A DNA stretch of 50,102 bases. It comes from Pseudomonadota bacterium (GTDB lineage Bacteria > Pseudomonadota > Alphaproteobacteria > MPNO01 > UBA2964). Of this stretch, positions 36,070-48,635 are shown piece by piece (the stretch's first letter is position 1; each line of letters opens with the position of its first letter). The notes beneath the pieces are model-generated. The model saw only the letters and a list, made by a program, of their open reading frames with translations, did not search any database and was not told the origin of the DNA. A program made the position numbers and the translations under genes. The stretch lies in the NCBI GenBank assembly GCA_027624735.1, contig JAQBTY010000001.1, forward strand, positions 1 to 50,102, in the 5' to 3' direction.

Positions 36070-36762
36070 ATGTCACAAGATTACATCGATATATCCATCG
36101 CCCTGCTAAGCGCGCTTGCAGCCGGTAGCCTGATCGGGCTCGAGCGCACCTATCATGGCCGACCGGCCGGCTTCCGAACCCATGCGCTCGTCTGTCTCGC
36201 GTCAGCCCTGCTAATGGTGGTGGCGGTCTATCAGCTTCAGTGGTTCGACCAGGGACCGCAGGAGATTATCCGCATCGAGCCAACCCGCATGGCGCAGGGC
36301 ATCATGACCGGCATTGGGTTTCTCGGCGCCGGTGTGATCTTCAAGGAAAAATTGACCGTGCGCGGTCTGACCACCGCGGCCTCGATATGGATCACCGCAT
36401 CGATCGGGATCCTTTATGGCGTGGGATTTTTCTTTCCGGCGCTGATGGGCACCGTGGCGATCCTTGGCGTGCTGGCTGGTTTCCGCTGGTTCGAACGGCG
36501 TATTCCGTCCCAATTTTTCTTCGAGTTCAGTGTCCGTTACCCCAAAGACAAGGTGCCGACCCTGAAAGAGGTACTAACAATTCTGAAGGATCACGGCTTT
36601 ACGGCTTCGGCGGTCAGCTTCAGGCTTGTTGCCGCAGGCACTCAGTTCCAATACGAAACAGTCATCCGCAGCAACAATCTGCCCGCCGCCCAGAAGCTTT
36701 CGGCCGACCTGTTGAAGCTGCCGGATGTCGAAGAATTCAACGTGCTCCCGATGGGAGACTGA
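36070..36762 (+). CDS. MgtC/SapB family membrane protein
   Basis: ORF from GTG at 36031; the first ATG is at 36070. Signature GLERTYHGRPAGFRTHALVCL. Four to five helices plus a C-terminal ACT-like soluble domain. Confidence 0.85.
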   Translation: MSQDYIDISIALLSALAAGSLIGLERTYHGRPAGFRTHALVCLASALLMVVAVYQLQWFDQGPQEIIRIEPTRMAQGIMTGIGFLGAGVIFKEKLTVRGLTTAASIWITASIGILYGVGFFFPALMGTVAILGVLAGFRWFERRIPSQFFFEFSVRYPKDKVPTLKEVLTILKDHGFTASAVSFRLVAAGTQFQYETVIRSNNLPAAQKLSADLLKLPDVEEFNVLPMGD

Positions 36763-37498
36763 TTCTTTTTAAGTTCGCGCCGGCCCGCTCCCCCCTAACG
36801 TCGGGCAAGGTCTTCATCATGCGGCGCACCGCGTCATCGGCGATAGACGCAAACATCTCGGGATCTTTTGTCATGAGGCCCGCGCGCGCGGCGGAAACGG
36901 GCACGTCAATGATCGAGATCGGCAAACCGCCATCTGACCGACCCGCTGCATGGTGCGCCTGCCATAGAATTTCGCCATCGGCGATCCGCCTCATGGTAAG
37001 GCTGACGGTAAGACCGCGCCGGGCCCACAGCACCATATAATCATCCTGCACCTGGGACAGGTGAATTTCGACCAGCGCGCCACAGCGTGCCTCGCGAGCG
37101 AACACCCGGCGGTCCGATACCGCCATAATATCGAGCCCGAGCCTGGCTTCCATACGGCGCAACCGCGCGCCGCCGATTACCCGGGGCAGACGTATCGCCA
37201 GATGTCGCTCCACGGCATCTTCCACGAGCCGGGAGATCGCGCGCGGCGCGGTGGTCTTGGTGACGATCGCGGCGCAAACCGGCGCCTCGGTATAAAACGC
37301 ATTGGCCAGACGGTAATCAACGCGGCGCTCCAGAAACGAGTCCGATTCGGCCTTTGGCGCACCGGTATGATAAGTGGTTTGCAGGCAGCCGCCGCCGAAG
37401 GCCGGAACCAGCAGGACCACGACCCGCAGGAACCCGTCAGGCCACAGGGGGTTGCCTGCCCCTGCCCTAATCACAGCCGGGACCGCGTGCCCGGCCAC
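36737..37498 (-). CDS. cluster gene 15: lipoprotein, unknown function (LpoB/DUF799/TolB-N-like alpha/beta pattern)
   Basis: GTG start at 37498, so the start is uncertain. Lipobox VVLLVPAFGGGC. Pattern of alternating hydrophobic strands and helices ending in ..GEILWQA. The 3' end overlaps the convergent MgtC gene by 26 nt. Confidence 0.65.
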   Translation of the reverse strand: MAGHAVPAVIRAGAGNPLWPDGFLRVVVLLVPAFGGGCLQTTYHTGAPKAESDSFLERRVDYRLANAFYTEAPVCAAIVTKTTAPRAISRLVEDAVERHLAIRLPRVIGGARLRRMEARLGLDIMAVSDRRVFAREARCGALVEIHLSQVQDDYMVLWARRGLTVSLTMRRIADGEILWQAHHAAGRSDGGLPISIIDVPVSAARAGLMTKDPEMFASIADDAVRRMMKTLPDVRGERAGANLKRISLPSGAR

Positions 37499-38468
37499 GG
37501 GGAGGCGGCAGCGCCACCGACCCGGCCAGGGGCCGGCCGTCGACGGTGAAATCGCCTAGAATGAGCCGCGACCGGTCCCAGCGGTAGGCGGCATGGATCA
37601 GTCTGGCTGTTTTGTATTGCGGCCCCAGTACCGCGCCCAGCCCGCCGAGCAAGGCGGCATCCACGTGACGCGGAAAGACCCGGACCGGCCGCCAGTCGGT
37701 CAGGCGATGGCGATCGGCGATGCTCGCGAAAACGCGCGCTTCCTCGGCAATGGCTTCGCCCTGTGGCGAACGGATAAAGCCGCTAAACCGGTCCATGTCG
37801 ATGGGCCAGGTCTCGCCGACCTTGCCCGCGGCGGCAAAGAGCCTTGCGCCCCCGGCCAGCACCGCCGCCTTGACGCCATAGCATTGTGTGAGCTGGCGAT
37901 AGAGCGCGCGCCGCGCGTCGGCCCGTCGCGGCCAGGCGATTTCGATGACCGGACCCTGGCCATGTTCGAGCAGCCGCAGCAGCGCGCCACCAGTTTTCGT
38001 GTTCCGGTCGCCATCCACCATGGCAGTAGCGAACTCCGCCGATGGCTTTCCGGATGGCTTGATTGCCGGCACCGGTTCAAGGGGCTTTATGCTGAGTTTT
38101 ATCGGCGGGACGTTGCTTGTTACAGGAGCCGACACCGGTTTGGCGGCCGTGATCCGCTTCATCGGCAAGATTGGTGCCGGCTGTATCGGCGTAATTTTTA
38201 CCGCGCTACTGGACGATACGGGGGACGATACAGGCGGTGGCGGCAACTGGATCGCCATTGCTGTGGCACCTGATTGCCTGGCGACCGTCGCGGCCACCCG
38301 TTTTTCCGGTCTGGGCCTATCAATTTGAGCGCTTTGATATAGCGCGACCGACGCCAGTACCAACCCGCCGATCAGCAGCACGGATACGGTCAGAGACAGC
38401 CGGTCGGCCGGGCCTGTCGCGCCTGGATCGACCGGCTGAGGCCGATCACTGGTTGATCGACCGGGCAT
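37467..38468 (-). CDS. cluster gene 14: bitopic membrane protein, TM anchor + Pro-rich rod + ~190-aa C-terminal domain (TonB/TolA-like architecture)
   Basis: ATG at 38468. Single TM helix LSLTVSVLLIGGLVLASVALY. About 100 aa Pro/Ser/Val-rich segment (QLPPPPVSSPVSSSS...PLEPVPAIKPSGKP). The globular C-terminus has no recognised motif. Confidence 0.7.
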   Translation of the reverse strand: MPGRSTSDRPQPVDPGATGPADRLSLTVSVLLIGGLVLASVALYQSAQIDRPRPEKRVAATVARQSGATAMAIQLPPPPVSSPVSSSSAVKITPIQPAPILPMKRITAAKPVSAPVTSNVPPIKLSIKPLEPVPAIKPSGKPSAEFATAMVDGDRNTKTGGALLRLLEHGQGPVIEIAWPRRADARRALYRQLTQCYGVKAAVLAGGARLFAAAGKVGETWPIDMDRFSGFIRSPQGEAIAEEARVFASIADRHRLTDWRPVRVFPRHVDAALLGGLGAVLGPQYKTARLIHAAYRWDRSRLILGDFTVDGRPLAGSVALPPPRGRARGPGCD

Positions 38469-39024
38469 ACAGAAGCTCCATCTCTTCAGCCAGCGATAAC
38501 AGTTCCTTGCGCCGTTCCGCGCCCGTCATCAACCGCGTTCCCTCTTTCAGGGCGGGGGCGGCCGGAGCGGCGTCGAGGCCGTCGAGCACTTCCCTGCGCC
38601 GCCTGGCGACGTCCGGCTCGAGAACCTGGGGAGCCCTCTCGATGATGGTCGGCACGGATTTCCGGCTTGTTGCCGAGCCTGTTTCCGGCAACGCCTGGAG
38701 GTCGCTGGCGAGTTGGCGCGACCGGGATGGTTCGGCCAGCGGCTCCGGTCGTGTCACCGTGGCCGGCGTCACAGGCTGCGTTACCGGCTGCGTTACTGGC
38801 AGGGATGGCGCCGTTACTAGCGTCGGTCCGGTCTTGCGCCCGGCCTTCTCCGTTTCGCGTCCAAACATGGACTGGCCGGCGGTGAGCGCCTTGTTCGCAT
38901 AGGATTTCATGTCGCCGGCGGCATCATGAACCTGCCCGGCGATTTTCTGCACTTCACCACGATCGGCGGTAAACAGGAACACCAACGCGGCGGCGACCGC
39001 AACATTGAATAGCAGAAATTTCAT
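38446..39024 (-). CDS. cluster gene 13: N-terminally anchored protein with Pro/Thr-rich repeat linker
   Basis: ATG at 39024 with GGAAGGTG upstream, 1 nt after the stop of the MotA-like gene. Anchor MKFLLFNVAVAAALVFLF. VTQPVTQPVTPATVTRPEP is encoded by a 12-bp tandem repeat at 38774..38797. Confidence 0.7.
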   Translation of the reverse strand: MKFLLFNVAVAAALVFLFTADRGEVQKIAGQVHDAAGDMKSYANKALTAGQSMFGRETEKAGRKTGPTLVTAPSLPVTQPVTQPVTPATVTRPEPLAEPSRSRQLASDLQALPETGSATSRKSVPTIIERAPQVLEPDVARRRREVLDGLDAAPAAPALKEGTRLMTGAERRKELLSLAEEMELLYARSINQ

Positions 39025-39025
39025 G

Positions 39026-39574
39026 TCATTCACCTTCCATCCGGGCCGCGATCGCGTGTCTTCCGGCCATGGTCCGATCAGGGACAACGCTGCGATTGTG
39101 GGCATGGGTAACGACGATCAGGCCGCGCAGGAGCGCCGATACCGGCAGACCGACAACGGTGGTCATGAAGGCGAGGCTGAAATTCGCCGTCATTTTGCGG
39201 ATCACCGGCTGGATGGTTTCGGGCGTCAGTTCCTGACCGGCCAGCGTGCCGATACCAAGGCTGATACCCAGCAACGTGAAGGTCAGCGCTAACGTGGTCA
39301 CCCCGTTGGCGGCCTGAACACCGGCCTCGAACCAGACCTCGTCGCCGGCGCCCTTCATCTGCAGCATGCGCACCCAGCTATAGAGAGCCAGGAACACCAG
39401 GCTGGTCAGCATCACCACGAAAGACCAGCCCAGCACCTCGCGCGCCCAGTTGGCGATGTCCGTAACGCTATGGGAGGTCATGAGCACCGCCACCGCCAAG
39501 GCGATGGCGAGCCCACCCATCAGGTAGCTTACCGCGCGCGACGAGCTATGGAGGGTACCGAGCAGGGCACGCAT
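39026..39574 (-). CDS. cluster gene 12: short MotA/TolQ/ExbB-family proton-channel-like protein
   Basis: GGGAGG Shine-Dalgarno. Four predicted TM helices. The last two read FTLLGISLGIGTL ... FSLAFMTTVVGLPVSALL. This parallels the ExbB/TolQ/MotA core (IGLFGTVWGI ... ALLATAIGLVAAIPAVV). Confidence 0.65.
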   Translation of the reverse strand: MRALLGTLHSSSRAVSYLMGGLAIALAVAVLMTSHSVTDIANWAREVLGWSFVVMLTSLVFLALYSWVRMLQMKGAGDEVWFEAGVQAANGVTTLALTFTLLGISLGIGTLAGQELTPETIQPVIRKMTANFSLAFMTTVVGLPVSALLRGLIVVTHAHNRSVVPDRTMAGRHAIAARMEGE

Positions 39575-39575
39575 C

Positions 39576-39968
39576 CTACCGCCTCCCTACACGCGCGTTC
39601 ATCAGGCTCTCGGTCGACACGCCAACCTGCTGAAGCCAGTGATCCATCAGCGTGCGATTATGTTCGGTCGACGCATGCACCAGAAACGTCAAATCGTAAT
39701 TCTCATAGGCCGCGCGCACCGCGGGCGTGCTCTTACCAACCAGCGATTTGTCTCGCAGAACCAGACGCTCCAGATCGATCAGGCGGTTACGGGACATTTC
39801 GACCTTGGCCTGGCGCCTTTCCGGGGTGAGTTCGGAGGTGAGCATTGACTCCAGCATCAGGGCCCGCTCGCGTTCCATGTTTTCGAGCGATCCGGCGTGG
39901 CTGGGGACGCTGATCCCAGCCGCCAATACCAGGACAGCGGCGGCGATGAATCGATTGGAAGTTCTCAT
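39576..39968 (-). CDS. cluster gene 11: small exported helical protein, unknown function
   Basis: GGAGGA Shine-Dalgarno. Signal peptide MRTSNRFIAAAVLVLAAGISVPSHAG. 130 aa. The stop lies 1 nt from the next start. Confidence 0.7.
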   Translation of the reverse strand: MRTSNRFIAAAVLVLAAGISVPSHAGSLENMERERALMLESMLTSELTPERRQAKVEMSRNRLIDLERLVLRDKSLVGKSTPAVRAAYENYDLTFLVHASTEHNRTLMDHWLQQVGVSTESLMNARVGRR

Positions 39969-39995: not shown

Positions 39996-40886
39996 TTATC
40001 GGTTGACAAAAAATTCGACGGCGTCGGTGACGCCCTTGTCCGCCGTCTGGGTTTCGGCCCCGGCGATATCGCCGCCATTGACGGTTTCGGACAAGGCCAT
40101 GGCATCCAGCGCCACCAGCTTGGCCATGTAGCCAAGAATCGACTGTTCCTGATCGATCACGGCGATGGTGGCTTCGTTTTCGCCGATCAGCTGGCGCAGA
40201 AAATCCTCCCGCGACACGGTCGCGCCATCGACTTTCGGCTGTTCGTTCATCGGGTGAGCGTTGACCGCCTGAACCAGCTGTTCGATGGCGGCGACGTTTT
40301 TGGCATATTCCCGGGCATATTTGCTTTCGGTCATCAGCGACGACCGGAACAGCTTTGCATCGACCTTGGCGATGGTATTTTCGAACCGGTCACGCGCCGC
40401 TGTCTGCTTGTCGATCAAGGCGGCACGTTGCGGCGTCAGGCCGGTGTTCTTTTGCTTTATCTTGCCGAGCAAATTTCCATAAACATGGATTTTGGTGCGC
40501 GCATGTTTACGGCGCAGCGACTGGTGATCGGCGACGAGATCCAGATAGGCACGTTTTTCCGCAAGAAACTGGTGCCTGAGTTCGACCCGCAGATCGCCTT
40601 CGGCCTGTTCCATGGCGCCGCGCAAATCTTCCAGCGTCCTGACCTTGAGGCTCATTTTTTCTTCAGTATCTCTGACCGCCGCAGCCAACGACGATTTTGC
40701 GTAATCCTGTTCGATGGCCTTTTTGAGGAAATTCGCCGGCAGCTTGATCAGACGTTCGCTGGCCCGGGGCGACCAATTCGCCTCTTCCGCCGAGGCACGT
40801 GCGTCAGTCATGGGTCCCGCGATCAGGGAAGCCGCGATAACGCAGGCAGACAGGCCGGCTACGGAAATCGGTCTAAATATGTTCAT
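39996..40886 (-). CDS. cluster gene 10: exported coiled-coil-rich protein, unknown function
   Basis: AGGAGA Shine-Dalgarno. Signal peptide MNIFRPISVAGLSACVIAASLIAGPMTDARA. Long charged heptad-like helices (EEKMSLKVRTLEDLRGAMEQAEGDLRVELRHQFLAEKRAYLD). Confidence 0.7.
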   Translation of the reverse strand: MNIFRPISVAGLSACVIAASLIAGPMTDARASAEEANWSPRASERLIKLPANFLKKAIEQDYAKSSLAAAVRDTEEKMSLKVRTLEDLRGAMEQAEGDLRVELRHQFLAEKRAYLDLVADHQSLRRKHARTKIHVYGNLLGKIKQKNTGLTPQRAALIDKQTAARDRFENTIAKVDAKLFRSSLMTESKYAREYAKNVAAIEQLVQAVNAHPMNEQPKVDGATVSREDFLRQLIGENEATIAVIDQEQSILGYMAKLVALDAMALSETVNGGDIAGAETQTADKGVTDAVEFFVNR

Positions 40887-40917: not shown

Positions 40918-41493
40918 TTACTTGTTCTTCCAATAGAGAACGCGCCGCATTTCGCTTTTCAGACCGTCGTTGATGTTCAACGCGGAAAATTCACCGAAAG
41001 TCCAACGCTCGCGCTGACCGAGCAGCGCTTCCATGGTGGTCACGAAGGACGTGCCGTCGGGATAGTAGAAATCATAGTCGGCGAACCGGTTCTTGAATTT
41101 TCCGAAATTATCGCGGGCCTTTTCCACATTTCCGCCCTTGAAGAAATTCTGGACCGAGAGCGCATAGGCCCGCATGCGTTCGTCGCGGGCGATACCGGCT
41201 GCGTCCGGACCAAGGCCGGTTTCACATTTTTCAAGCACTTGGGCGCTCGCCAGGTAGGTGCCGCTTGTCCCGGACGAGCGTGCCTGGCGGTCGAGTTCAA
41301 CACCCTGATCGCGGCAGGCCCTGTAGTCGCGCATAATGGATATCTGTTCGAAACGCGCCTCGCGGTAACCGATCCCTTCCAGAGGGCCGTTGACATCGCT
41401 GGTGCAAGCCGACAAAGCCACCGTGGCCAGCGCGGCAAAAACAGTGCGCCGAAGGGCGGGTAACAATTTAACGGGATTCCGGAATGCCAACAT
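40918..41493 (-). CDS. cluster gene 9: lipoprotein, unknown function
   Basis: Internal ATG at 41493 (MLAFRNPVKLLPALRRTVFAALATVALSAC) gives a signal peptide with an LSAC lipobox. The rest is helical. A 123-nt gap lies upstream. Confidence 0.7.
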   Translation of the reverse strand: MLAFRNPVKLLPALRRTVFAALATVALSACTSDVNGPLEGIGYREARFEQISIMRDYRACRDQGVELDRQARSSGTSGTYLASAQVLEKCETGLGPDAAGIARDERMRAYALSVQNFFKGGNVEKARDNFGKFKNRFADYDFYYPDGTSFVTTMEALLGQRERWTFGEFSALNINDGLKSEMRRVLYWKNK

Positions 41494-41616
41494 GGTTAGG
41501 TCCTTTTCTGATCGTGTCGAGCCCAAGTTCCTTGGGGGTTACGGGGGTTAGGGAAGGATCAGAGGCGTTTTCCCTCTGTATCGCCACAAGTGCAGCCAAA
41601 ATTTGTCCAAAACTGT

Positions 41617-45176: not shown

Positions 45177-45725
45177 TCACACCTGCCCGCGAAGAAGTTG
45201 TTTACGATAGTGCCGGCGCAGACGCTTTACCCTGGCCACATAGCGCGCGGTTGCCGGTATGACCCGGGCATTGGCCCAGGCGCCGACCGCGGACCCGCCA
45301 TTGTAATGGGACAGCGCCAGATCGACCCGGCCGCCATAACGGCGGATCAGACGTTTCAGAAAATGCAGCCCGAGGCGGATATTCAGTCTCGGTCGCCAAA
45401 GTAATTTCGGCTCTATCCCGTATTCGCCCCGCGCGGTCATTGGCATGATCTGCATGACGCCGCGGGCGCCTTTGGCGCTCCGCGCCTTGGGATTGAAGTT
45501 GGATTCCACGTGCGCCACGGCAAGCGCGAGGGAGATGGGAACCCGCAACCGCTCCGCTTCCTGGATCACCAGCCGCTTGACCTCATGGCGCGCAACGGGC
45601 CGGTTTTGATTGGCATCGGCGACCGTACCGCACCCGGCAACAAACAGCGCACAGACCAAGACAATTGTCACAGCCGACCCAATACCGCGTCGGCAGGCGG
45701 GCTGGGAATGCACCCTATAACGCAT
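45177..45725 (-). CDS. cluster gene 5: lytic transglycosylase (SLT domain) lipoprotein
   Basis: ATG at 45725 (MRYRVHSQ..) with AGGAGA upstream. Lipobox LFVAGC. SLT catalytic motif AVAHVESNFNP and GARGVMQIMP, then HYNGG. Confidence 0.85.
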   Translation of the reverse strand: MRYRVHSQPACRRGIGSAVTIVLVCALFVAGCGTVADANQNRPVARHEVKRLVIQEAERLRVPISLALAVAHVESNFNPKARSAKGARGVMQIMPMTARGEYGIEPKLLWRPRLNIRLGLHFLKRLIRRYGGRVDLALSHYNGGSAVGAWANARVIPATARYVARVKRLRRHYRKQLLRGQV

Positions 45726-46161
45726 TCTTCTTCTCCTGCAGGGCGCGACGCCAGTTGCCGTCAAGCGTGGTGATAACCAGCCGGCTTGCCGCGATCTTGC
45801 GCCGTGCTTCAATGGCCTGCGCCATGGACAGGTCCGGTGTAACGGCGAGCACTACCCGTTTGGTATCGTCAATGGTGGCCAGGTCGAATGGTTTGAGATC
45901 GCGGCCAAAAAAACGGCTGCCATCGAAGACCACCAGCACGTCTTTGTTGGTCAGCTTGTCGACCGAACCGGTGGCGCGCGCCGGACCGCTATCGGCGATG
46001 ACGGCCGAAATCATCGCCCGGTCCGGCCTTTGAGGTTGCGATTTGGCCGCCGGAACACTGACGCCCATGGACATGGCGGTCAGCACCATGACGCTGAAGA
46101 AACCCATCGCCATCGCCAGCGCGATCTCGGTCATCGCATTTTCTTGTGCACCGCCACTCAT
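45715..46161 (-). CDS. cluster gene 4: ExbD/TolR-like bitopic protein (Glu in TM helix)
   Basis: GGAGGGA Shine-Dalgarno 4 nt upstream. TM helix MTEIALAMAMGFFSVMVLTAM carries an acidic residue near the cytoplasmic end. The periplasmic part VLVVFDGSRFFG...KRVVLAVTPDLSMAQAIEARRKIAASRLVITTL parallels ExbD VYLSVKADNSMFIG...TTIFFRGDKTVDYETLMKVMDTL..AGYLKIGLV. Confidence 0.6.
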   Translation of the reverse strand: MSGGAQENAMTEIALAMAMGFFSVMVLTAMSMGVSVPAAKSQPQRPDRAMISAVIADSGPARATGSVDKLTNKDVLVVFDGSRFFGRDLKPFDLATIDDTKRVVLAVTPDLSMAQAIEARRKIAASRLVITTLDGNWRRALQEKKNAL

Positions 46162-46229: not shown

Positions 46230-47066
46230 CTAAGGAAGGACCAGGGCGGTTTTACCTTCCTGGCGCAGGCTGGCGCGCAATTCATGGATCAGCCGGCGGG
46301 TCATGCGGCCCGTCGCGACCTGTCCGAAATCATGCTGATAGGTGCGGATCGCGCGGCGCAGACTTGGGCGCATCAGCCCATCTTGCGGGCCGGGATCATA
46401 GTCAAGGCGCGCCAGCAATTGCTGCGCCAGCAACACCGGGCGCCGGGCGCCGGCGGCCAATTGCGCCGGCGGTCCTTGGCGCCCTTTCCCGGTTACAGCA
46501 ACGCCTGGCTCAGTCAGCCAGATCTGGCGCGGCCGGGTCGCGGCAAAGACAATGCCGTCTTCGACGCTCACCGCCTTGTAGGAAATGGAAACCGCCTGAC
46601 CGTCTTTGCGCAGCGCCCCGACGATCAGGATGTCGACCTTGGCATTGCGCAGCAGATCGACGACCCGACTGTTGGCGGGTGATTCAAGCTCTTCAATGGT
46701 ATCGAGCTCACGGATAATTTCGCGCAGCGTCTCGCGGGCAACGAACCGGTAGGTTCCGCTGCCACGGCGCGTCAGCTCGGCCAGCAGCCGTGTATTGAAT
46801 TCGCTCGCCACCGACGGCGGTATGGTCTTTTCGGTATCCTTGAACGGCGCTACCGCGATACGCGGCTTGCCGTAGCCGCCGATCGCCGGAATATCCGCGA
46901 CACTGGCCGAGCCGATACCGGCCAACAATTCTTCGGCAAAAGACGCAAACTGGCTTTGCGCGGTACCTTGCGCGAAGGCCGGTCCCATAAGACCAATCGA
47001 CAAGGCGGCGGCGGTAAAGCCAGCCCATCGCGACAGAGGTTGGAATATTTTATTGCATGCAATCAT
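46230..47066 (-). CDS. cluster gene 3: exported protein with FlgO/TolB-N-like module and C-terminal peptidoglycan-binding domain (PG_binding_1)
   Basis: ATG at 47066 gives signal peptide ..FTAAALSIGLMGPAFAQG. PRIAVAPFKDTEK...VDILIVGAL pattern. C-terminus LLARLDYDPGPQDGLMRPSLRRAIRTYQHDFGQVATG matches the PG_binding_1 consensus. Confidence 0.75.
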   Translation of the reverse strand: MIACNKIFQPLSRWAGFTAAALSIGLMGPAFAQGTAQSQFASFAEELLAGIGSASVADIPAIGGYGKPRIAVAPFKDTEKTIPPSVASEFNTRLLAELTRRGSGTYRFVARETLREIIRELDTIEELESPANSRVVDLLRNAKVDILIVGALRKDGQAVSISYKAVSVEDGIVFAATRPRQIWLTEPGVAVTGKGRQGPPAQLAAGARRPVLLAQQLLARLDYDPGPQDGLMRPSLRRAIRTYQHDFGQVATGRMTRRLIHELRASLRQEGKTALVLP

Positions 47067-47091
47067 GGTTCGGCCCCCATATTTTTTCGGT

Positions 47092-47910
47092 TTACCAATC
47101 CCGCGAGTCGGTGGCGGGTTGTGCCGTCGGATCTGCTTCAACGACGTAAGTATTTCCGGTTCGCGCGATGCGCGCCGTGAGCTGCAAATGATGCAGCATC
47201 TTCCTGAGCGAGAGCTCGGTCCCGTCTGCCGTACCATCCTGGCTGAGACGATAGAGAACCCCTTCACTGGCCGTGTAGTCGCGCCGGATCCGTGTCACAC
47301 CCGGGAAATTACGGAGATAGAGTTCGATCCGCGGCAACAGGGAGGGATCGATGCGCCGAAACGCCACGCTGATCTGGGTCGGGTCAGCCGTGGCAACGTG
47401 GCGATCGCGGCCAAGCCTTACCAGGCGCCGGTCCACATCCGCCGCGAGGCGCGCCACCAGCGGCGTAACCCGGCGTTGGATTTCCTGGTCGATACAGGAT
47501 TGCGGGCAGTGCGCCGCAAGGCGCCACGACGTACCCGGCCCAGTATCAAACCGCGCCAGAATGCGCTTGGTATCCCCGTCGATCAGAGTCGCTCGCAGCT
47601 CGATTGTGGCGTGAGACGTATAGGCGCCTTGAAGGATCCGGCGTTCGGTGGCTACCCGTAGAATTGTCGCACCGGGTGCGGATGTCCTCACGCCCCCATC
47701 GAGCACCGCATAGCCGCGCCGGCCGAGGGCCGCCATGATGAGACGACGCACCCTTCTGTCGGTTGCGGCGTTTTGCCCGTCGCCGGCCTCCTGGGTAACG
47801 ACCAGCTCTGTCTTGACTAATTGGTCCGCCTGGACGGCCGCAGGGGTGAGAAAGGGCACGGCAAGGGCCAGTAGTGCCCCAGCCGCGGCGACAGGCCTGA
47901 TCATCGCCAT
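47092..47910 (-). CDS. cluster gene 2: exported hypothetical protein
   Basis: ATG at 47910 (MAMIRPVAAAGALLALAVPFLTPAAVQA) with AAGGGGGG upstream. No recognised motif. Confidence 0.65.
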   Translation of the reverse strand: MAMIRPVAAAGALLALAVPFLTPAAVQADQLVKTELVVTQEAGDGQNAATDRRVRRLIMAALGRRGYAVLDGGVRTSAPGATILRVATERRILQGAYTSHATIELRATLIDGDTKRILARFDTGPGTSWRLAAHCPQSCIDQEIQRRVTPLVARLAADVDRRLVRLGRDRHVATADPTQISVAFRRIDPSLLPRIELYLRNFPGVTRIRRDYTASEGVLYRLSQDGTADGTELSLRKMLHHLQLTARIARTGNTYVVEADPTAQPATDSRDW

Positions 47911-47951: not shown

Positions 47952-48635
47952 TCAACTTGCCTTGCGCCAGGTGCCGTCGCTGGCGCGGCAGGCGGTGCCG
48001 TGCAGCTCTTCCTCATACCCATCGATCCAGCCCCAGGACTTGAAGTCGCGGCAGTACTGCCCGTTTTCACGCTGATAGGTGCGAGTCGGGGTAACAGTGT
48101 AGTCCGCGCCCGTACCGGGGTTGGTCCAGGTCACCCGCTGGCCGGATTTCGCGGTCTCCAGCGCATTGTGCGTGTGAAGCCGGTCGGCCCGGTCCATCGA
48201 ATCGCCGATGCTGCCGCCGATGATGGCGCCGAGGACACCGCCCACAAGGATCGCGGGACCCCGGCCGCGGCCGCGGACGATCGCGTTACCGGTCAGCCCG
48301 CCGAGCACGGCGCCGATGACGCTGCCGGCGACGGCGTTGTTGCCACGGCGGTAGGTCGGCTGGGTCACGACGGTATTGCGATGAACGACCCGCGTGTGAT
48401 GGTGGTGGACGACCCGCGTGCGAACCGGACGGTGTATCCAGCGGCGGTCCCGGCGATAACGGGCACGGGATTCACGGGGCTGCACATAGACAACTTTCTT
48501 AACCACTTTCACGACCCTCGGGCCATCATGGCGCTGATGCCTCTTCCAGCCATCGGCATGGGCCGGCGCCGCGGCCAGCGTAACAAGAGAGATCCCGGCA
48601 AGGCCAAACAGGGTATTTCTGGTGTATGTCAACAT
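47952..48635 (-). CDS. cluster gene 1: glycine-zipper / 17-kDa surface antigen family outer-membrane protein
   Basis: Signal peptide LFGLAGISLVTLAAAPAHA. Glycine zipper AVAGSVIGAVLGGLTGNAIV..GGVLGAIIGGSIG. C-terminal surface-antigen pattern NALE..SGQ.V.W.NP.TG...V.P...Y...G.YCR.F......G.....GTACR..DGTW. Confidence 0.8.
   Translation of the reverse strand: MLTYTRNTLFGLAGISLVTLAAAPAHADGWKRHQRHDGPRVVKVVKKVVYVQPRESRARYRRDRRWIHRPVRTRVVHHHHTRVVHRNTVVTQPTYRRGNNAVAGSVIGAVLGGLTGNAIVRGRGRGPAILVGGVLGAIIGGSIGDSMDRADRLHTHNALETAKSGQRVTWTNPGTGADYTVTPTRTYQRENGQYCRDFKSWGWIDGYEEELHGTACRASDGTWRKAS

Follow-up and report, generated by a model that had tools for sequence, protein, structure and literature searches.

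The window analysed here, a stretch of 50,102 nucleotides (positions 1 to 50,102 of contig JAQBTY010000001.1, assembly GCA_027624735.1) from an alphaproteobacterial metagenome-assembled genome (MAG), carries an unbroken run of 15 minus-strand genes, g01–g15, between about positions 48635 and 36737. Within this cluster the candidate gene g12 (39026..39574, minus strand) encodes a 182-residue protein with four transmembrane (TM) helices, a core of the ZorA/MotA/ExbB type in TM3–loop–TM4 (about residues 86–160) and no cytoplasmic domain. On the sequence comparisons described below, g12 belongs to the ZorA/MotA/ExbB superfamily, in which it forms a minimal branch that has neither a tail nor a cytoplasmic domain and whose partners are arranged in a non-canonical way.

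The open reading frame (ORF) of g12 starts with an ATG at 39574, preceded by GGGAGG just upstream, and its TGA stop codon ends at 39026. Gaps of a single nucleotide separate it from both neighbours: the TAG stop codon of g11 ends at 39576 and the ATG of g13 lies at 39024. Hydropathy analysis gives four hydrophobic segments, at about residues 17–38, 46–71, 91–113 and 134–158. Conservation, topology and profile scans were based on a set of 79 diverse family members. In this set the number of Lys and Arg residues per sequence is 2.5–2.7 in the N-terminus, loop 2 and the C-terminus, versus 0.8–0.9 in loops 1 and 3, and because of this enrichment an N-in/C-in topology is assigned. The core hairpin then runs out and back in and the C-terminus is cytoplasmic, which is compatible with the MotA/ExbB/TolQ superfamily. 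An AlphaFold2 model built from the family alignment is all-helical, with a mean predicted local distance difference test (pLDDT) score of 95.7. The loop between TM2 and TM3 is only about 20 residues long and leaves no room for a cytoplasmic loop domain, while the chain ends about 25 residues past TM4, without a tail of the ZorA type. The initial annotation had given the same coordinates, length and four TM helices, and these are borne out by the ORF and its hydropathy. Its description of the flanks (a small exported protein upstream and a Pro-rich anchored protein downstream, both across 1-nucleotide gaps) is equally correct, the absence of a MotA cytoplasmic loop and of a ZorA tail is confirmed by both the sequence and the AlphaFold2 model, and the N-in/C-in topology with four TM helices fits the MotA/ExbB family.

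The g12 family comprises 1014 clusters at 90% identity with an expectation value (E) of at most 0.001, and 158 representatives at 50% identity. Nearly all full-length members are about 160–200 residues long. Neither Pfam nor NCBIfam has a model for the family, and none of the sources gives it an informative name: no member has a precomputed Pfam domain, the few named ones are mostly called 'hypothetical protein', and Pfam and NCBIfam scans of g12 alone gave no usable match. The named sources are mostly Alphaproteobacteria (Rhodospirillales/Rhodospirillaceae, Terasakiella, Magnetovibrio, Sneathiella and SAR116), and one source is a Magnetococcales MAG. Conservation peaks in TM3 and TM4. Residues Leu97, Leu101, Gly103, Gly107, Phe132 and Ala135 are invariant, and Thr100, Ile104, Thr138, Gly142, Leu143, Pro144 and Arg150 are at least 90% conserved; the counts at individual sites are 77/79 for Thr100, 79 for both Gly103 and Gly107, 74 (plus four Ser) for Thr138, 62 (plus 16 Ser) for Thr139 and 77 for Gly142. 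The core motifs that had been picked out by eye from the single sequence are therefore the conserved core of a genuine family. Two genomes of the same taxonomic family as the source MAG show one in-frame stop each (TGA and TAG) in the open frame around the g12 match (G461:C38:12017-12505 and G455:C5:12252-12716), which may lie inside or outside the gene.

The link between this core and known motor proteins runs through ZorA. When g12 itself was scanned against the PADLOC models it matched the ZorA2 model PDLC00636 (E 0.0021). Across the family four ZorA2 models were matched by 51, 40, 34 and 32 members and two ZorA1 models by 23 and 17, with best E-values of 1.3e-7 and 5.5e-6. Ten ZorA models in all were matched, by up to 51/79 members, whereas each PADLOC family other than ZorA was matched by just one member. 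The NCBIfam scan of the family returned the same ranking more weakly, ZorA_2 being matched by seven members (best E 1.5e-4) and ZorA_4 by three.

Profile–profile alignment with hhalign leads to the same relatives. ZorA genes were taken from 19 genomes of the phylum and their N-terminal TM regions were cut out and aligned. The g12 family aligns with ZorA2 with a probability of 92.7% and an E-value of 4.2e-7 over 70 columns (g12 residues 86–160, TM3–loop–TM4), and with ZorA1 with a probability of 62% and an E-value of 7.5e-5. As a control, the reversed ZorA2 alignment gave a probability of 0.6% and an E-value of 0.1, and 150 column-shuffled ZorA2 alignments reached a maximum score of 22.1 (median 12.1) versus 47–51 for the real one. 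Comparison with TolQ, for which 30 sequences of the same class as the source were aligned, provides a measure of scale: the bona fide pairs ZorA2–TolQ and ZorA1–TolQ give probabilities of 12% (E 0.0024) and 56.6% (E 1.1e-4), respectively. As the g12 family outscores this comparison when aligned with ZorA2, the distance from g12 to ZorA is, in this test, smaller than that from ZorA to TolQ.

In the hhalign register, Thr100-x-x-Gly103 of g12 coincides with G-T-x-x-G in ZorA2 and TolQ, and Ala135-Phe-x-Thr138-Thr139-x-x-Gly142 with A-(F/L)-x-(T/A)-(S/T)-x-x-G. A register first drawn by eye, in which LLGISLGI was equated with LFGTVWGI, was dropped, as the hhalign register puts Thr100 on the Thr of G-T-x-x-G. 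Through ZorA, Thr100 and Thr138/Thr139 align with Thr145 and Thr178 of TolQ, and we take their positions to be those of the pore-lining threonines in TolQ (Thr145 and Thr178) and ExbB (Thr148 and Thr181). From this correspondence we infer a role in the ion path for the conserved Thr and Gly residues of TM3 and TM4. A Foldseek search of the PDB with the predicted structure of g12 has TolQ, ExbB, ZorA or MotA chains in all of its top 34 positions, with probabilities of up to 0.96, which we count as suggestive only. At the level of sequence profiles, TM3–loop–TM4 of g12 and the ZorA/MotA/ExbB channel hairpin are distantly homologous, as can be demonstrated via ZorA.

The resemblance to ZorA is strongest for type II. 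TM2–loop–TM3 of ZorA aligns with TM3–loop–TM4 of g12, and the motifs G-T-x-x-G-I and A-F-x-T-(T/S)-x-x-G are common to both. Unlike ZorA, g12 has an additional N-terminal TM hairpin (four TM helices against three) and lacks the long C-terminal coiled-coil tail, so that its 182 residues compare with 376–1078 for the ZorA2-type ORFs that were retrieved; it also lacks an adjacent ZorB, with its Asp and peptidoglycan-binding domain, and the effector genes ZorC–G. With MotA and PomA, chains of which are among the Foldseek matches, it shares four TM helices, the N-in/C-in orientation and a TM3–TM4 channel. In contrast to these proteins, it does not have the cytoplasmic torque-generating domain of about 100 residues between TM2 and TM3, and no MotB, with its plug and OmpA domain, is encoded in the cluster.

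The cluster as a whole is reminiscent of TolQ–TolR–TolA and ExbB–ExbD–TonB in combining a channel-type polytopic protein, a small bitopic protein with a membrane carboxylate and anchored Pro-rich rods, and, as in the Tol–Pal and Ton systems, it includes periplasmic proteins, lipoproteins and a peptidoglycan-binding protein. It differs from Tol and Ton in that neither sequence nor profile searches match TolQ or TolR directly, g12 is without a cytoplasmic domain, the carboxylate of g04 is Glu and not Asp, the genes lie apart and the core members include an SLT enzyme. Motors of the TolQ-like kind that have no adjacent or syntenic tolR/exbD gene, and in which the trans-pore helix or a docking transducer is provided by unconventional bitopic partners, have been described (Williams-Jones et al. 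2025, PMC12204202). These TolQ-like/vWA motors provide a precedent for an A subunit without a syntenic B gene, as for g12; they differ in that the A subunits are recognisable TolQ homologues and that the partners have an Asp and a TM-tethered vWA domain, and neither is true of the g12 system.

Directly downstream of g12 lies g13 (38446..39024, minus strand), a bitopic protein with an N-terminal anchor, MKFLLFN, that contains a conserved Asn7, followed by a Pro-rich linker of PVTQ repeats and a conserved C-terminal helix. In related sequences the anchor is conserved as M(K/R)F(L/I)xFN and is followed by a helical region, the Pro-rich region and the conserved C-terminal helix. The TM helix carries a polar Asn about five residues from the cytoplasmic face and no Asp. 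A g13-type ORF starts at the g12 stop codon in 73/78 loci, most commonly with a 4-nucleotide overlap (32 loci). This translational coupling makes g13 a likely direct partner of the TolA/TonB type, and it is a candidate for a TolA/TonB-like transducer or for a second axle component. The gene that adjoins g12 is thus not a B subunit with a TM Asp: g13 has an Asn and a TolA-like layout. The claim in the initial annotation that g12 has no adjacent ExbD/MotB partner stands in so far as no conventional B gene adjoins it, but it overlooked the coupled, TM-anchored g13.

The only B-subunit-like candidate in the cluster is g04 (45715..46161, minus strand), 6.1 kb upstream of g12 in the window. It is a bitopic protein of 148 residues, the TM helix of which (NAMTEIALAMAMGFFSVMVLT) contains the invariant Glu12, and we propose it as the axle (B-type) subunit. 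The helix is extremely conserved, as NAMTE(I/V)ALA(L/M)AM(G/A)FFS, with the Glu invariant in 38/38 sequences and kept (NPLTEIGLALSMCFFS) in a metagenomic lineage whose g12 is just 31% identical. It is the only invariant membrane carboxylate in the cluster. The AlphaFold2 model of g04 (mean pLDDT 78.7) predicts a TM helix at residues 5–31, a disordered linker and a β/α domain at residues 75–147, which is placed in the periplasm.

The occurrence of g04 follows that of g12. In a synteny survey, the 15 cluster proteins were compared by tblastn with 80 loci from GTDB species genomes. In this survey g04 was detected in 56/80 loci and is located upstream of the g09–g12 block in most of the loci that extend far enough upstream; where the genes g06–g08 are absent, g04 and g05 form a pair directly before g09. 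In a phyletic test over 78 genomes of the order, g12 was found in 17 and g04 in 20. The two genes lie on the same contig, 2.5–6.5 kb apart, in 17/17 g12-positive genomes, and the co-occurrence of g12 with an upstream bitopic gene, on which the initial annotation had made its proposal depend, is therefore observed. Three genomes have g04 without g12: two of them are 71% and 79% complete and the third has its match near a contig start.

The same homology of g12 could be combined with another axle. In such an arrangement g13, alone or together with g14, would sit inside the g12 ring, while g04 would, for example, anchor or regulate the SLT enzyme; the Asn in place of a carboxylate might then mean a passive scaffold or a different mode of gating. 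The A and B genes of 5:2 motors are normally adjacent, with B directly after A (PMC12505986), and this is the position of g13. Its mostly overlapping junction with g12 persists at 22–33% identity, and its N-terminal TM helix is highly conserved and has a polar residue. Nevertheless, an Asn cannot carry a proton, and changes of the D32N type in MotB abolish function. Moreover, an anchor, a Pro-rich rod and a C-terminal module make up the layout of TolA or TonB and not of a B subunit, and it is g04 that holds the sole invariant membrane carboxylate and tracks g12 in every genome tested. On balance we consider g13 as the axle unlikely and retain g04 in this role.

The remaining members of the cluster, all on the minus strand, are largely exported or membrane-anchored. 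The first gene, g01 (47952-48635), encodes an outer-membrane lipoprotein of the glycine-zipper/17-kDa-antigen type, and g03 (46230-47267) has PG_binding_1 (E 1.2e-10) next to a CsgG-like module that is matched only weakly, narrowly missing the cut-off (E 1.2e-4); both genes are found in only some of the related loci. An SLT-domain lytic transglycosylase (PF01464, E 1.9e-22) is encoded by g05 (45177..45812), which always follows g04. Genes g06–g08 form an optional, membrane-anchored Lon-like protease triad, present in 44/80 loci. The lipoprotein gene g09 (40918..41526) is the first of the invariant g09–g14 block. It is followed by g10 (39996..40886), an exported helical protein of 296 residues that is the most conserved member of the cluster (51% mean column identity), and by g11 (39576..39968), the exported protein of 130 residues, which is always directly upstream of g12 (80/80 loci). 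Downstream of g13, g14 (37467..38468) encodes a bitopic protein of 333 residues with a TM helix, a Pro-rich region of about 100 residues and a conserved C-terminal domain of about 190 residues, and the terminal gene g15 (36737..37498) encodes a lipoprotein. The TM helix of g14 (residues ∼24–45) has a conserved S-x-x-x-S at its cytoplasmic end (LSLTVSVLL, VSIAISGII) that recalls the S-x3-H part of the SHLS motor-docking motif of TonB and TolA; there is no His in g14. Pfam scans of g13, g14 and g15 returned nothing, and neither did searches of the PDB sequences with the g10 and g14 profiles.

Over the 80 loci the invariant gene block is g09–g10–g11–g12–(g13)–g14–(g15), with the order g11–g12–g13–g14 kept in the most distant relatives (22–33% identity). 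No paper on a gene cluster of this make-up turned up in a search of the literature.

The distribution of the cluster is patchy. Within genera, g12 is present in 5/12, 4/7 and 1/5 genomes, and overall in 9/43 high-quality genomes of the order. A second, paralogous g10–g11–g12–g13–g14–g15 block is present in the same MAG on a 5.7-kb contig (G000 contig C229, L143:1-3833) that ends inside g10; the g12 of this copy and the candidate share 51% identity. As the contamination of the MAG is 5.9%, the copy could also stem from a co-binned relative. Two metagenome contigs carry divergent versions. On the first (L153:138-13104) a distant g12–g13–g14-like trio, with a g12 that is about 33% identical, adjoins an IS21 IstB gene and has rve and DDE transposase genes and a DUF4928-containing DNA methylase in its neighbourhood; this locus is either a cluster truncated by an insertion sequence (IS) or a mobile block. 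On the second (L154:5886-16129), from a divergent lineage with a g12 of 31% identity, the cluster genes are divided between two convergent operons, the first running from a g09-like to a g14-like gene and the second comprising two unknowns, a g04-like gene, an SLT gene and the Lon-like triad. From this split it follows that the g04–SLT pair travels with the triad side of the cluster and not with the g12 side.

These features raise the question of whether the cluster is an envelope-surveillance or anti-phage system akin to Zorya instead of a housekeeping machine akin to Tol or Ton. A minimal motor would then sense perturbation of the envelope or cell wall and signal to g06–g08 or to other effectors. 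The nearest detectable relatives of the g12 core are indeed ZorA types II and I, and the patchiness within genera, the second paralogous cluster, the distant member flanked by IS21, rve transposase and DNA methylase genes, and the protease triad as an optional insert all point to an accessory, possibly Zorya-like role. However, the cluster lacks a ZorA tail, a ZorB-type partner and ZorC–G. No cluster protein other than g12 matches any PADLOC model, and the core cluster is conserved equally in loci without the triad. The genes that flank the cluster in the window are metabolic and not defence-related or mobile. An origin of the window from a prophage or mobile element was set aside in view of the flat base composition and the metabolic flanks. 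Most members are exported, structural-looking proteins and lipoproteins, accompanied by the SLT enzyme, and together with the metabolic flanks and the lack of further defence-model matches this fits a trans-envelope machine of the Tol/Ton type. We therefore regard a defence function as quite improbable.

The same genome also encodes canonical motors, TolQ–TolR and MotA–MotB, and a third PF01618 protein, each with an adjacent bitopic gene; g12 is its only A-like protein without a conventional neighbour. The third PF01618 protein (L003:438-1797, G000 contig C155) has 256 residues (E 1.3e-8) and is followed by a bitopic protein of 200 residues without a Pfam match, in which an Asp is seen by eye at the start of the hydrophobic helix RDVIMLALAGF. 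The two form an uncharacterised stator-like pair.

In MotA, ExbB, TolQ and ZorA the A subunit forms a pentamer. We favour by a modest degree an assignment of g12 as the A-type subunit of an ion-driven membrane motor that is a minimal version of the 5:2 type. Five copies of g12 would surround the TM helices of a g04 dimer, in which the membrane Glu12 would act as the proton carrier in the role of the Asp of MotB, ExbD, TolR and ZorB, and proton flow would drive the relative rotation of the g12 ring and g04. With their N-terminal anchors and Pro-rich rods, g13 and g14 may dock onto the pentamer in the manner of TolA and TonB and carry force or a signal across the periplasm to g09–g11, g15 and the CsgG-like, peptidoglycan-binding g03. 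The periplasmic and outer-membrane part would consist of the exported proteins and lipoproteins of the cluster together with g03, and the SLT enzyme g05 may open the cell wall for assembly of the machine. Physiologically, such a machine might serve to maintain the envelope, or to sense its state in connection with the optional Lon-like triad.

Several observations count against this assignment. For g12, a Pfam scan gave no match to PF01618 at E-values of up to 1, and only 3/79 family members match it (best E 0.022), so that the hidden Markov model comparison proposed in the initial annotation came out negative. On these scans g12 is not a member of PF01618 as it is now defined. The family profile retrieved no ExbB, TolQ, MotA or ZorA chain from all PDB sequences at E-values of up to 10, and hhalign found nothing between the g12 family and TolQ, even at low mact. 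The Foldseek matches are weak, with a best E-value of 0.012, none at or below 0.001, TM-scores of 0.27–0.40 and a root-mean-square deviation of about 20 Å. For g04, searches of Pfam, PADLOC and the PDB sequences gave no relevant match, the hhalign comparisons with TolR (E 0.84) and ZorB2 (E 0.7) are not significant, and a Foldseek search with its model returned only generic α/β matches (best E 0.28). Every characterised motor that we know of has an Asp where g04 has a Glu, and the 2.5–6.5 kb between g12 and g04 are unlike the usual adjacency of A and B genes. Finally, we infer the stoichiometry and the ion flow, as well as which protein forms the axle.

The negative searches with g12 would also be met with if g12 were not a motor subunit but an unrelated small polytopic scaffold or anchor, the likeness to ZorA then being a convergence of Gly/Thr-rich TM helices. 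Under that explanation the silence of PF01618, the PDB sequences and the TolQ profile, and Foldseek values that never reach an E of 0.001 or a TM-score above 0.40, are as expected. What it does not account for is that the composition-preserving shuffles and the reversed control never come near the real hhalign score, that ZorA models are matched in such number while other families are singletons, and that the conserved sites coincide with the motif positions of ZorA and TolQ. We judge it very unlikely. The MotA/ExbB-type core that the initial annotation had assigned to the last two helices holds by way of ZorA, from the PADLOC and hhalign results, with Foldseek as a suggestive addition, and is not recovered through PF01618, PDB sequences or TolQ.

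As regards g04, the control pair ZorB2–TolR is also weak in hhalign (E 0.035), which means that this test has low power for B subunits. For this reason a by-eye likeness of the g04 helix to those of MotB and ZorB ([ST]-[DE]-[LI]-x3-L-x-M-x-F) is kept, as a lead only. To our knowledge, D32E is the only substitution of Asp32 in MotB that retains some function in Escherichia coli. The term 'ExbD-like' for g04 denotes an architectural analogy, in the bitopic layout, the small-residue-rich TM helix and the position of the carboxylate. The earlier statement that the only ExbD-like gene lies about 6 kb upstream is accurate as to position, and the gene does encode a bitopic protein, one with a TM Glu; homology to ExbD or TolR was not detected.

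The ion-driven 5:2 motors known so far fall into five functional classes: flagellar Mot/Pom, Ton, Tol, Gld/type IX secretion system (T9SS)–Agl gliding and Zorya defence. As g12 is always found in one conserved envelope cluster, in mostly marine Alphaproteobacteria, its presence is probably the mark of a new envelope machine, proton-driven and reduced in its parts. A bolder reading, which we hold tentatively and at somewhat less than even chances, is that g12 and g04 together with g13 and g14 form an unrecognised class of 5:2 motor driven by the proton-motive force, with the smallest A subunit known (about 165–185 residues, lacking a cytoplasmic domain) and a Glu axle encoded kilobases away, and that this motor powers a new trans-envelope system. 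The system would stand apart from Mot, Ton, Tol, Gld/T9SS, Agl and Zorya and would occur mostly in marine Alphaproteobacteria. Cultured carriers of the cluster exist (among them Terasakiella pusilla DSM 6293 and T. brassicae), which makes the motor hypothesis directly testable. If it is true, this sixth class, with its four TM helices, would define the minimal sequence for a rotor ring, would offer a natural test of Glu replacing the canonical Asp and would represent an unstudied envelope machine in abundant marine Alphaproteobacteria.

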